Source: Ostreococcus lucimarinus (taxonomy: Eukaryota). From it: a stretch of 64,000 nt of DNA. Position numbers and translations under genes: made by a program. Below are positions 46,234-51,470 of the stretch, piece after piece. The DNA lies in NCBI GenBank assembly GCA_000092065.1, contig CP000583.1. One strand, written 5' to 3'. The stretch's first letter is position 1. The number at the start of each line of letters is the position of its first letter. The notes below the pieces were generated by a model. The model saw nothing but the letters and a program-made list of their open reading frames with translations, was not told where the DNA came from and did no database searches.

Positions 46234-49200
46234 GTGGACCGCACTCTCGCGCGCGCGATGTTCACGTCCGCGCGCGAGGTCCTGGCGAAACAGACGGAAA
46301 CCGACGCGTCGTCGCGCGGCGACGACTCGACGCGCGCGCGCGACGCGAACGCGCCGAAACCGTCGTTCGACGTCGACGCCCAAGATGCCAAAAACATCGC
46401 GCGCGCCGAAGCGAAAGCCGAACGCATCGCGCGCGCCGAGGCGAAGCGCAAGCGAAGAGACGACGAACCGAAGCAAACGTCTTTAATCGACGCGTGGCGA
46501 CGCGGTGGGGCGCGAGCGTCGACGTCGGACGTCGGCGTCGGCGGCGATGTCATCCGACGGTTGTTGAGCTGCGCGCCGACGAGTTTCTACGCCGACGCGC
46601 GATTGGTGTGCAAGGCGTGGCGAGACGCCGTGGACGATCCGAAGTTCATGCCGTGCGTGAAACTCAATCGAGCGCTCGCGTTGGGTGGCGCGCGCGCGGA
46701 TGCGGCGGAGGCGTACTTGAATGAGGTCACGGGACGCGAGCCGGGAGACGCGGGCGTCGGGCCGTTGGCGAGACACGCGGCGACGACGAAGACGCTGTTC
46801 AAATCGCGATTGGACGTCGAGACGTTTTGTCGATTCGTGGAGGAGGATGAACACTTATCGGGGGCGAGAGATATACGTGGGGAAGTGCAACCGGGGTACG
46901 ACGAACCCGATGATTTGACGAAGATTGATGATTTTTGGCAGTCGCTCGGTACGGCGGCGTCGCGTTCGTTTCTAGGCACCGTCGGCGACGTCGCGGCGAC
47001 GATTCGGGTGATCGCGAAATTTGCGTGCGTTCAAGAGCCGATCACGCGCGGCGGCGAGCGCGAGGCGGACAACACGCGAGCGAACGGCTGGGCGGTGTTG
47101 GTTATCGCGATGACGCACGTCGCCGAAAACGAATGGATCGCTTCTCGGTTGCTTCGAGCGGCTCGACGCGCACTTCGAAGCGACGCGAGCGCGGAATTCG
47201 TTGAAGAAGACTTGACCGAGTTTGTCAATTTGCTCATCGCGTACGTGCGCTTGGAATCGAGATCATACGCAGACGCATCCGAGCCGGCGAAAGTCCACGC
47301 ATGCCGACGTATGAAGGCGCGATTATCGGCCGCGTACGATTACGCCAATCTTCACGACGAACGGGAACAAAACTCAAGCGACGCAGATTTGAAAAATGTC
47401 GTGGGGAATTCGAGCGCCGCAACGCGTCCGACGGATACGATGCGAAAAACATCGAGATTGACACACGAACAGGAAGCCATCGTCTCGACGAGTTTGCGAC
47501 CACCGCAATGGATGGTCGTGCACGCGTTCGCGGGATCGGGCAAGACGACGACTTTGGTCGAGTACGCGAAGAGAAATCCTTCGAAACGATTTCTTTATCT
47601 CGCGTTCAATCGTGCCATCACGGAAGAAGCCAAGACAAAGTTTCCAGCGAATACGGACGCGAAGACGTTTCACGGATTAGCGTACGGGCTCGCCACGTGG
47701 TACAAGGCGGGAGGTAAAAAACTACACTTCGGCGACAAGCTTCGATCGTCCGAAGTCTGCAAAGCGCTCGGAAAATCAATCAGCGATCGGGCTGTGGGCA
47801 AAGGTTTGGTGACGCTCCAAAACTTTCTAGTTTCTGCCGATGAAAATATTTCAAAGGAGCACGTGCCCACGGAAGGTGTTAAACCTGCGTCTGTGGACGA
47901 AATCATTCAAGTTGCCGAGACGTTGTGGCGTATGATGAAGGACCGATCGAGCAACGATGTGCCGTTGACGCACGCCGGCTACATGAAGCTCTACCAACTG
48001 CAACGTCCGCGTCTGGATATCGACATGAGTAGAAATAAAAACAAGACGGGATATGACGTCATTTTGCTGGACGAAGCGCAAGATATCGCACCTGTGATGT
48101 TTGATATCGTTCTTCGGCAAACGAAATGCGCAAAGATTCTCGTCGGAGACGTACATCAACAAATTTACAACTTCACCGGAGCTATGAATGTGATGGATAA
48201 AATCGATGATCTCGTGGCTAGCCATCAAGTGACGCACAGGCGGCTTGTGAGAAGTTTTCGTTTCGGTGTGGAAATCGCCAATGTCGCAAACGCTATCTTG
48301 AACATAAAGCGCGAGAGCGCATTCCTTGTCGGCGCGCGATTGAGCGAGCTGGATCAAACGTGCGTGTTCTCAACGGAAAACGTTGCGTCTAGCGACCCGA
48401 GATTGAAGACAGTACGAGGTCCGCCGCCCTTATCTACTGTGATCGTAGGAGACGGGCGACGCGAGCAACTGGCGGTTCTGGTTCGATCGAATTACAATCT
48501 CATTTCGGCTTTGATGTATCTCGAATCCTCGCGTTCGAAAGTGCACGTCATCGGTGGCGTCGACGCGCTCAAGCTCGACCAAGTGTGTGATTTCGTGCGT
48601 TTGATACTCGACGAAGATCTAGGATCCATCAGCGACCGATACATCAAAATGTTCGTCACGTACGGCGGCGGCGATCTGGCTAGGTTTGATCAACGGCAAG
48701 ACCAAGAGAGTTTTGTTGAGCGCAACGCGCTGACGAGGATATATGAAATCGCTGAGAACCAAGACGACGCGGACACTCTCAATCGAATACGCATCGCGCA
48801 AAGTTACCGCGAGAAGATGTTCAAACTCGTCAAGCGATTGAAAGATAGCTCATTCCTTTCGAACGAGCCCAACGCAAACTTCATCGTCGCCACGGCGCAC
48901 AAGTCCAAGGGGTTGGAGTTTGATAACGTGATGATATGGGACGATTTTGAAGACGTCGATCGGGTCTGGCGCAGAGGGGACAAGTACGTATCGATCAGTA
49001 CAGATCCGGTTTTCGGCGACGCAGACACCTTGGTCCCCGTCGATGAAATCAATTTGACGTACGTGGCCGTGACGCGGGCGAAGAAACGCGTTTTCTTGAA
49101 CAAAAGCATCGCCACCCTCTTGGCGTTCCCGTCGCATGGAAACGTCCCGATGTACGACGAAATCGCGAACGGTTTCGCGCTCTTTCCAGAGAGATTTCCA

Positions 49201-49893: not shown

Positions 49894-51470
49894 AACGCAG
49901 AAGAGTCGCCGCCGCGCCGTCGCGACAGCCACGCCCGCCGTGCAAACCGCGCCACATCTCGGCGCGTCGCGCGATGCCCGCCGCCCGATCGAACGCCCGC
50001 GGCGCGTCCGCGACGACGACGAATACCGTCGACGACGCCGTGACGCGCGCGTTCGGCGCGAGCGGCGCCGCGCGATCGAACGCCGCGCGCGCGAAGCGAA
50101 AGAATTTCGCATCGGGAACCGCGGGCGCGTCGCGGACGGTCGCGGCGGAGCGCGAACGCGCGATCCCGAAGGGCGAGGCGTGCGACGCGCTGCCGATGGA
50201 CTGGACGATCAAGTCGAGCGTGCGGTTGAGCTCGCGGGCGAGGTCGTTCCGATGGGGGACGTGCGCGGGGGCGAACGCGACGTCGGAGGGACTGCGGGCG
50301 TACTCGGGCGGCGACGCGTCCTCGTTGAGCATCGACGGTGGAGAAAGCGGCGACGGCGGCGACGACGACGAGGCGAGGTTGGAGAAGAAACAGAAATTGC
50401 TGACGCGGGCGATGTATTCGTGCGCGTATCCGGAGCTCGGGCTTTCGGATGAACAGCTGGCGTCGATGCGGGCGACGCCGAGCGGAAACGAGTGGGTGCG
50501 GAAACGCGAGTCCATGTGGGTGGATGCCTTGGTGAGTCTGTACGGGTTGCTCAAAGTGAGGCAATGCTATGCGTTTTACGTCGTCTATCGCGAGCGGAGC
50601 ATCTTGTTCTGCGCGCCGGGCGTGGGAGGGGTGACGGATGGCGGATACGCCGTGGTGACGAATAGCAACGCGAAGATTCGAGCGGCATTGAAGGACGCGG
50701 CGGTAGATTTCACGAGCGCGGACGAAGAGGCGCTGGCGATCGGCAAAGCGAAAACTGTGTGGGCACAGAAATGGCGACCCGAGGACGAGACGCAAGGGTT
50801 GCTAGACAACCTGGCCGGCGACGACGCGAGCCGAGCGGAAATCACGGCGCATTTGGCCAAGATGGATAACCCAAGCAACGCTCGTCGCCGAGCCGCGGAT
50901 ACGATCATATGCCGCGGCGCGATCGCGGTGAATGGACTGTTGAACGTTCTAGTCGAAGCCTCCGGGGGTGATCCCGGAAGTTCCGACGGCGCGCAGCACG
51001 ACGTACCGATATTGTTGGCACCCGTACCGTTCGCGCACAGCTCGATGAAACCTTTGGAGCTCAAGGCACAAACGAACACGATGTTGTCTCGCAAAGACGG
51101 CAAGAATGCAAACGCACTGTACCAATCATCCAACGCGACGTCGATGCAAACGGTGTACACGGCGGAGACGGATCGCGACGAACTCATTCCGCCGTGGACG
51201 CTCGCGCGCGTTTGCGCGGCGTTGGCGCTCAACCATGAAGACATATCTGCCACGTGCATGACCCACAAGCCTACGCACGGCTTGAACGTTGGCGTCTTAG
51301 CGGCGCGCGATATGTCGGATTCCAACACCAAGCATCGCGAAGCCGTCTTGGTTCGCGAGTGCGCGTATTACGACGAAGCCGAGACGTCGCGCATCATGGC
51401 GCCGCCGCCGCTCGGTTCGTCCGTGCTCTCGCGCATCGAGTACGTCAACGGGACGTATTATATCCCTTAG
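49890..51470 (+). CDS. Conserved hypothetical protein (526 aa)
   Basis: Good coding character in the C-terminal 400 aa (…AMYSCAYPELGLSDEQL…LLKVRQCYAFYVVYRERSILFCAPGVGG…). Its ATG overlaps the FBH1 stop (ATGA). The true start may be further downstream. No domain assigned. Confidence 0.4.
   Translation: MKRRRVAAAPSRQPRPPCKPRHISARRAMPAARSNARGASATTTNTVDDAVTRAFGASGAARSNAARAKRKNFASGTAGASRTVAAERERAIPKGEACDALPMDWTIKSSVRLSSRARSFRWGTCAGANATSEGLRAYSGGDASSLSIDGGESGDGGDDDEARLEKKQKLLTRAMYSCAYPELGLSDEQLASMRATPSGNEWVRKRESMWVDALVSLYGLLKVRQCYAFYVVYRERSILFCAPGVGGVTDGGYAVVTNSNAKIRAALKDAAVDFTSADEEALAIGKAKTVWAQKWRPEDETQGLLDNLAGDDASRAEITAHLAKMDNPSNARRRAADTIICRGAIAVNGLLNVLVEASGGDPGSSDGAQHDVPILLAPVPFAHSSMKPLELKAQTNTMLSRKDGKNANALYQSSNATSMQTVYTAETDRDELIPPWTLARVCAALALNHEDISATCMTHKPTHGLNVGVLAARDMSDSNTKHREAVLVRECAYYDEAETSRIMAPPPLGSSVLSRIEYVNGTYYIP

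Follow-up and report, generated by a model that had tools for sequence, protein, structure and literature searches.

The window analysed here, a stretch of 64,000 nucleotides from the green alga Ostreococcus lucimarinus (contig CP000583.1), has a GC content of about 61% and carries densely packed genes, among them two neighbours on the plus strand that are our subject: an orthologue of FBH1 (FBXO18), an F-box DNA helicase, and, downstream of it, what its homology identifies as an orthologue of DONSON, a replication-initiation factor. The open reading frame (ORF) listed for the first of these, 46234..49893 (+), opens with GTG, and its first ATG lies at 46258. Because every one of the 18 orthologues that we aligned (alignment A1) begins at that Met, with the common start MF[TS][ST]A, we consider 46258 the real start, which gives a coding sequence (CDS) of 1,211 codons in a single exon, with no signs of introns. 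Residues 1-1190 are identical to XP_001416537.1 of O. lucimarinus CCE9901, and the window therefore matches the CCE9901 reference at the FBH1 locus.

A sequence-only reading of this stretch had proposed an FBH1-like protein, and comparison with solved structures bears this out, the best match being human F-box DNA helicase 1 and not UvrD, Rep or Srs2. A phmmer search of the PDB returned human FBH1 (9xzj_F) as its sole match (E=7e-68), with separate stretches corresponding to the F-box and the two helicase halves, while a profile built from the 18 orthologues matched human FBH1 at E=8.4e-125, against values of about 1e-7 for UvrD, RecB and PcrA. An AlphaFold2 (AF2) model of residues 90-1211 reached a predicted local distance difference test score (pLDDT) of 63.7 and a predicted template modelling score (pTM) of 0.70; with this model, 9xzj_F again headed the Foldseek list (E=2.6e-26, with 927 aligned columns for 805 modelled residues), UvrD coming next (4e-9), the identity to human FBH1 in the Foldseek alignments being about 24-29%. 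When 1.84 billion representative sequences were scanned with HMMER, in a library that carries no taxonomy and gives names to few of the matches, the top named matches below the algal relatives were animal proteins called 'F-box DNA helicase 1'. Word-indexed homologue searches retrieved only algal relatives and short helicase-only proteins, and NCBIfam gave nothing beyond sub-threshold matches to bacterial helicase models. By phmmer, profile, Foldseek and library matches alike, the protein is closer to FBH1 than to any other superfamily 1 (SF1) helicase, and its assignment as an FBH1/FBXO18 orthologue is secure, the sequence homology being far beyond what chance would give. A bacterial or viral origin was rejected, as the architecture and the best matches are those of eukaryotic FBH1. 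The assignment is already present in automated annotation, where a 99%-identical metagenomic protein bears the Joint Genome Institute (JGI) label 'F-box protein 18 (helicase)', and is hence not new; a search for literature naming both 'FBH1' and 'Ostreococcus' found nothing on this gene, PMC2790887 dealing with SRS2.

The complete UvrD/SF1 motif set that had been read from the sequence is indeed all there, namely AFAGSGKTTT, LLDEAQD, VGDVHQQIY, SFRFG, TAHKSKGLEFD and YVAVTRAKKR, and Pfam recognizes the helicase through PF00580 (9e-10), PF13245 (3.6e-11), PF13361 (1.9e-9) and PF13538 (2.1e-7). Upstream of it, the profile alignment runs past the F-box into the N-terminal domain (NTD) of human FBH1 (chain residues 141-230), a domain described in PMC12946210, and the corresponding algal region is helical in the AF2 model, with block-mean pLDDT values of about 65-92 save for one low-confidence loop. 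Alignment and model thus both place an FBH1-specific helical domain after the F-box.

Human FBH1/FBXO18 (9xzj, 9xzl, 9xzm; PMC12946210) has the same domain order, from a disordered N-terminus with a PCNA-type motif through the F-box, the helical NTD and the UvrD-type helicase to a Cys-rich C-terminus; the sequence match to it spans the F-box, part of the NTD and the entire helicase, and it is also the best fold match. The SF1A enzymes Srs2, UvrD, PcrA and Rep share the helicase fold and motifs with the algal protein, but match it much more weakly (profile about 1e-7 against 1e-125, fold 4e-9 against 3e-26) and, unlike it, are without an F-box, the FBH1 NTD or the C-terminal Cys pairs. Fbh1 of Schizosaccharomyces pombe is shorter, with its F-box at the extreme N-terminus. 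Going by its description (PMC4148199), this protein likewise joins an F-box to a UvrD-type helicase, its host being a single-celled eukaryote that possesses Srs2 as well, and the activities that the algal protein would by analogy share with it are Rad51 filament disruption and the ubiquitylation of Rad51 dependent on an SCF (Skp1-cullin-F-box) ligase. As an SRS2 homologue has been reported for O. lucimarinus (PMC2790887), this minimal green alga keeps an FBH1 with most of the human-type parts alongside it, as in fission yeast.

The end of the FBH1 gene, gtgaaATGAaacgc at 49885-49898, has its stop codon overlapping an ATG at 49890-49892, as the sequence-only reading had noted, and this ATG opens a 526-codon ORF that ends at 51470. 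The same reading had called the downstream gene a conserved hypothetical one and had placed its start within the ATGA, in an unusually tight tandem for a eukaryote; the first of these views did not hold, and the second is probably wrong. The 526-codon ORF matches Xenopus DONSON (8q6o_R) at E=3.2e-9 over ORF residues 91-280, and precomputed matches to PF27662 (DONSON) exist for all 18 homologues as well as for the gene after FBH1 in five related lineages; the local copy of Pfam is without this family, hence no Pfam match for the DONSON of the window itself. Relative to the Xenopus protein (8q6o; PF27662), the N-terminal disordered part is divergent. On this homology, the downstream gene is a DONSON orthologue.

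Where this gene starts can be judged from its relatives. The closest sister lineage (L001) has 91-97% nucleotide identity to the window, but between 49846 and 49946 identity collapses, with many indels, and the sequences become unalignable; alignment resumes about 30 nt before an ATG at 49974 and is near perfect from there on. A 2-nt indel just 5' of ATG 49974 breaks the frame of ATG 49890, and the open DONSON frame of L001 reaches no more than 60 nt 5' of the Met equivalent to M29. In a third lineage, 87% identical (P0127), DONSON has 498 residues and starts MSAARS. Within the species, a 99.4%-identical strain has just two amino-acid differences in the 526-codon ORF, both in its first 28 codons; at the nucleotide level, the 84-nt extension 49890-49973 holds 2 differences, compared with 30 over the whole 8,666 nt. 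Given the starts used in the sister lineages, the unalignable and frameshifted spacer, and the confinement of the strain's amino-acid differences to the extension, DONSON most likely starts at ATG 49974, as a separate gene 80 nt after the FBH1 stop. Such a distance is ordinary for this genome, in which intergenic regions average less than 200 bp (PMC2367439).

The ATGA is then probably no functional start. It amounts to one four-base coincidence, at an ATG that is the first to follow in frame upon a stop just 7 codons 5' of it, and the distance from the FBH1 stop to the called DONSON start is 178, 15, 278, 21 and 244 nt in five other lineages. No conserved junction geometry was found in these five, where the order FBH1 then DONSON is kept and the junction itself is unalignable. 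Most probably, the overlap is incidental, a lineage-specific in-frame upstream ATG in a spacer that, from these alignments, evolves fast by indels. The spacer of L001 (about 7650-7790, equivalent to window 49846-49946) is about 100 nt longer and carries a direct duplication of about 45 nt, GAATTGAAATC[GA]AACGAAACGCGGCGAAGCGCAGACGGTGAC. The coordinates of all features are collected in Table 1.

Table 1 Features of the FBH1-DONSON locus, in window coordinates, with the evidence for each
Feature	Position	Strand	Evidence and remarks
FBH1 (FBXO18) orthologue, CDS	46258..49893	+	ORF; shared Met; matches to human FBH1 9xzj_F; identity to XP_001416537.1; TGA at 49891-49893
FTSAREVL, F-x-[ST]-A-[SRGA]-x-x-[LIM] (aa 2-9), FxxA-like candidate partner-binding motif	46261..46284	+	Conservation
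PIP-box-like QTSLIDAW (aa 73-80), just 5' of the F-box	46474..46497	+	Q73 invariant; Q-x-S-[LI]-x-D-A-[WFY] conserved
F-box (aa 97-130), degenerate	46546..46647	+	PF00646 below cut-off; alignment to human F-box; orthologue matches; AF2 helices
FBH1-type alpha-helical N-terminal domain (predicted), F-box to helicase	46648..47442	+	Profile alignment; AF2 model; Foldseek
SF1A UvrD-type helicase core (aa 396-957), motifs I-VI	47443..49128	+	Pfam; aligned to human FBH1 365-870
RYIKM, at the position of human FBH1 APIM (KFIRR)	48637..48651	+	Column-by-column alignment with KFIRR
C-terminal region (aa 958-1211): two Cys pairs, low-confidence insertions, conserved tail PLFHTMRYE (49807-49833)	49129..49890	+	
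236-nt GT..AG 'intron' of XP_001416537.1, fusing FBH1 to DONSON	49827..50062	+	Judged an annotation artefact
ATGA, FBH1 stop over in-frame upstream ATG of the DONSON frame	49890..49893	+	Kept in 99.4%-identical strain; missing in five other lineages
Probable intergenic spacer or DONSON 5' leader, 80 nt, no ATG	49894..49973	.	Unalignable with sister lineage
DONSON orthologue, CDS, 498 aa from most likely start	49974..51470	+	8q6o_R; PF27662; sister-lineage Met

The least regular part of the protein is the F-box that the sequence-only reading had placed N-terminal to the helicase. The segment is where it was said to be, and is degenerate: PF00646 reaches 20.2 bits (E=5.7e-4) where the cut-off is 20.5, with a match that begins only at profile position 7, and PF12937 gives E=0.014. 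The F-box/NTD stretch nevertheless aligns with the F-box of human FBH1 (independent E-value of 6e-5 with the profile, which also matches the F-box of FBXO2 at 9.7e-4), the AF2 model has three short helices here, and Pfam F-box models are matched by 16 of the 18 orthologues when these are scanned singly (best E=9e-7). The Leu-Pro with which human FBH1 and the more distant relatives in A1 open the F-box is Gly-Gly in O. lucimarinus and its sister lineage, and Leu-Ser or Val-Ser in a clade of about 51-52% identity (P0003-P0007). Mutation of the Leu-Pro is a standard way to abolish Skp1 binding, the L14A/P15A mutant of S. pombe fbh1 reportedly being one example. One could speculate that the F-box is a relic, leaving the O. 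lucimarinus protein with helicase and anti-recombinase functions only and no longer a place in an SCF ubiquitin ligase, a view to which the substituted Leu-Pro and the truncated, sub-threshold Pfam match both lend some weight. Against it stand the good conservation of the remaining F-box (L103, R115, V117, W121, R122 and D126), the alignment with the F-boxes of human FBH1 and FBXO2 together with the three predicted helices, and the retention of the helical domain, through which SKP1 and the helicase are connected in human FBH1. Such conservation would be unexpected of a dead module, and we regard the loss of SCF function as unlikely, though of the alternatives considered here it fares best.

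That FBH1 and DONSON are made from one transcript, whether by a spliced fusion or by AUGA reinitiation after a 3.6-kb ORF, appears very improbable, with the comparative data arguing against both routes; were it true, a fork-reversal anti-recombinase would be coupled physically or translationally to a factor in assembly of the CMG (Cdc45-MCM-GINS) helicase. The spliced version has the advantage of being in the databases. XP_001416537.1, in UniProt A4RTQ9, is a 1,658-aa 'predicted protein' in which ...LPLFHTMR is joined to GAARSNAARAK..., so that the two genes would be one, with a 236-nt intron at 49827-50062 removed. The model is present in both NCBI and UniProt, the proposed intron has GT..AG boundaries and joins the two frames, its length is near the species mean of 187-188 bp, and there are claims of gene fusion in Ostreococcus (PMC2367439). 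The donor GT, however, is CT in sister lineage L001, where the FBH1 frame has CGC for CGG, a synonymous change, and beyond the donor, within the supposed intron, lies a conserved FBH1 motif Y/R-E-x-x-L, together with the almost invariant E1192. The stop of FBH1 comes 7-23 codons past the conserved T1188 in the six lineages compared. At the other end, the 3'-terminal 119 nt of the 'intron' show about 96% identity and no indels, and encode the conserved N-terminus of DONSON, the acceptor cuts through a conserved motif, V-x-x-A-[LF], and gene callers applied to other assemblies give two genes. From these comparisons, we hold the fusion for a very doubtful proposition, the 236-nt intron being unsupported and the fused reference model an artefact. 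The practical outcome is a correction of the gene model, in which XP_001416537.1 / A4RTQ9 is to be split into FBH1 (1,211 aa) and DONSON (498 aa), and the relevance of the finding is largely limited to annotation. As a side effect of the fused model, DONSON sequences enter the 90% cluster of FBH1 (P0037 in cluster 1).

Least credible of all is a bicistronic mRNA on which ribosomes would stop at the UGA and reinitiate at the overlapping AUG (AUGA coupling), for while the four-base overlap has the classic termination-reinitiation geometry, is kept in a second strain, and would occur in a group, the green algae, for which polycistronic nuclear transcripts are documented (PMC7896298, PMC11291117), it is missing in five related lineages with gaps of 15-278 nt, the 28-codon extension changes in the manner of non-coding sequence, no UGGGA (motif 1 of the calicivirus termination upstream ribosomal binding site, TURBS) was seen in the 100 nt leading up to the stop, and the upstream ORF has 3,636 nt with 49 further ATGs, reinitiation efficiency dropping with the length of the upstream ORF (PMC11291117). 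The bicistronic loci of green algae (PMC7896298, PMC11291117) likewise pair two ORFs of one strand that overlap or lie very close together, but their first ORF is short (median 291-357 nt) and depleted in AUGs, and the second is reached by leaky scanning (PMC11291117). At FBH1-DONSON, no such short, AUG-poor first ORF was found: the one in the window is ten times longer than typical and not AUG-depleted, and the overlap is not conserved.

Beyond motif VI, the sequence-only reading had remarked on a C-terminal extension of about 230 residues. An extension is present, of about 265 residues, but it is most likely a zinc-ribbon region and not an extra module. It contains two Cys pairs, C1055/C1058 (49420-49431) and C1154/C1157 (49717-49728); none of the 18 sequences of A1 departs from C1055, C1154 or C1157, and C1058 is shared by all 16 of A4, the alignment from which the Micromonas-like group was omitted. 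Further on, T1188 is invariant and E1192 nearly so (A1). The pattern CxxC...CxxC was also seen among the more distant FBH1 homologues that we read, in P0025, in protist homologues and in one fish FBH1, and was absent from two mollusc FBH1-like proteins. In human FBH1, the Cys pairs of the zinc ribbon lie at chain residues 892-897 and 928/931 (PMC12946210), with 35 residues from motif VI to the first Cys and 30 between the pairs, whereas the corresponding distances in O. lucimarinus are about 111 and 95 residues; the short homologues, with 35-38 and 28-30 residues, have the human spacing. Activity is lost in the C925A/C928A mutant of the human enzyme (PMC12946210). A profile of the C-terminus of the short orthologues against the PDB, and hhalign against the human C-terminus, gave alignments that end about 20 residues past motif VI, before the ribbon, and homology of the ribbon rests for this reason on Cys pattern and spacing. 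AF2 applied to the C-terminal region alone (A4) gave a mean pLDDT of 49.6, and Foldseek against the PDB returned nothing at E<=0.001, a result that is uninformative either way on a zinc ribbon. Judged by pattern and position, the extension is most likely the FBH1 zinc-ribbon region, widened by lineage-specific insertions. In a separate observation, the part of human FBH1 that begins at motif VI and ends shortly after the ribbon's first Cys cluster (query residues 15-67) matched Crov588 of Cafeteria roenbergensis virus (PDB 6nyr_A) at E=1e-7, and a giant-virus protein may thus share this motif VI-ribbon part of FBH1.

At the other end of the protein lie short motifs that may bind partners. The FxxA-like motif that follows the initiator Met has F2 and A5 invariant among the 18 orthologues, and a regular expression for it gave 12 matches among 150 representatives of the family (FBH1-type), 10 of these 12 in the first 60 residues of 9 long proteins. 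It resembles the FxxA motif by which BRC repeats, and RAD51 itself (FTTA), bind RAD51. The motif was not seen in the three animal FBH1 N-termini that we read and is additional relative to human FBH1; it is a candidate for binding a partner. Close to the F-box lies a motif resembling a PCNA-interacting peptide (PIP) box, which is non-canonical in having Ala at position 7; the PIP box of human FBH1, QRCIPEFF, is likewise situated in the N-terminal disordered region (PMC3711418). Within the helicase, RYIKM is similar to KFIRR, which in human FBH1 is a functional AlkB homologue 2 PCNA-interacting motif (APIM; PMC3711418), and D793 and Y795 are nearly invariant (A1); by this analogy we infer a putative binding of PCNA through RYIKM.

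The order of parts in the algal protein is thus a disordered N-terminus with FxxA-like and PIP-like motifs, an F-box, the FBH1 helical domain, a UvrD-type SF1A helicase and a four-Cys region of zinc-ribbon type. SKP1 binding and SCF E3 activity, removal of RAD51 filaments and fork reversal are biochemical properties of FBH1 (PMC12946210, PMC4148199), and by analogy with the human and fission-yeast enzymes (PMC12946210, PMC4148199, PMC3711418) the O. lucimarinus protein would be recruited through its PCNA-type motifs, move 3'-5' along single-stranded DNA at stalled forks, clear away RAD51 filaments and help the forks to reverse. It may also act as an SCF substrate receptor that ubiquitylates RAD51, if its F-box still binds SKP1, and as this F-box has lost the Leu-Pro, the SCF role would be the least certain part of the proposed function.

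Taken as a whole, our explanation, in which an FBH1 orthologue is followed by a separate DONSON gene starting at 49974, with an incidental ATGA and an artefactual fusion model, has in our estimate a probability of roughly 0.8. Several points weigh against it. The whole-protein AF2 model is only moderate, with its pLDDT of 63.7; the F-box is below the Pfam cut-off and without Leu-Pro; and the zinc ribbon is unalignable to that of human FBH1 by profile methods, in a region for which AF2 has low confidence. For where the DONSON mRNA begins, and for the view that the two genes are neither spliced together nor co-transcribed, the evidence is comparative sequence. The ATGA is retained within the species, and were transcription to start 5' of 49890, ribosomes would meet the overlapping AUG first and DONSON would be 28 residues longer.

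The surroundings of the two genes are conserved to some depth. The neighbourhood, with Vps5, Vps23/UEV, ..., FBH1, DONSON, ..., FBPase, is collinear in five related loci, and because it is collinear as a whole, the adjacency of FBH1 and DONSON appears to reflect the general synteny of Ostreococcus-type genomes. The adjacency is lost in the more distant, Micromonas-like locus L006, where an S1-domain gene follows FBH1, which suggests a local rearrangement between genera; the FBH1 orthologues of this Micromonas-like group have 35-40% identity and about 1,380-1,400 residues. In the window, an S1-like ORF lies beyond FBPase, at 53853-54929 (-). Between the stop of an upstream 168-codon ORF (46050) and the FBH1 start, 2.9 copies of an 11-nt tandem repeat, CGATTTGTGAC, stand at 46063-46094 with a 95% match, and 3' of the repeat an E2F-like site, TTTCGCGC, occupies 46114-46121. 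Sites of the E2F type, TTTSSCGC, number 31 in the window against 37.7 expected, hence no enrichment, and we make no claim for the one that lies 137 nt 5' of the FBH1 ATG; scans of the locus for tRNAs and tandem repeats gave nothing relevant.

Outside the window, an N-terminal HIRAN domain was found above the cut-off (PF08797, E=7e-11 to 5e-7) in five FBH1-type helicases of protists (P0025, P0184, P0207, P0219 and P0261), whose sequences come from metagenomes, MMETSP and EukProt; in four of the five no F-box was detected by Pfam. These fusions and the FxxA-like motif of algal and protist FBH1 offer leads for FBH1 specialists, since both would fit the roles in RAD51 removal and fork reversal. 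In HLTF, an enzyme of fork reversal, HIRAN binds the 3' ends of DNA, and its occurrence in FBH1-type helicases is consistent with a fork-reversal role of FBH1.

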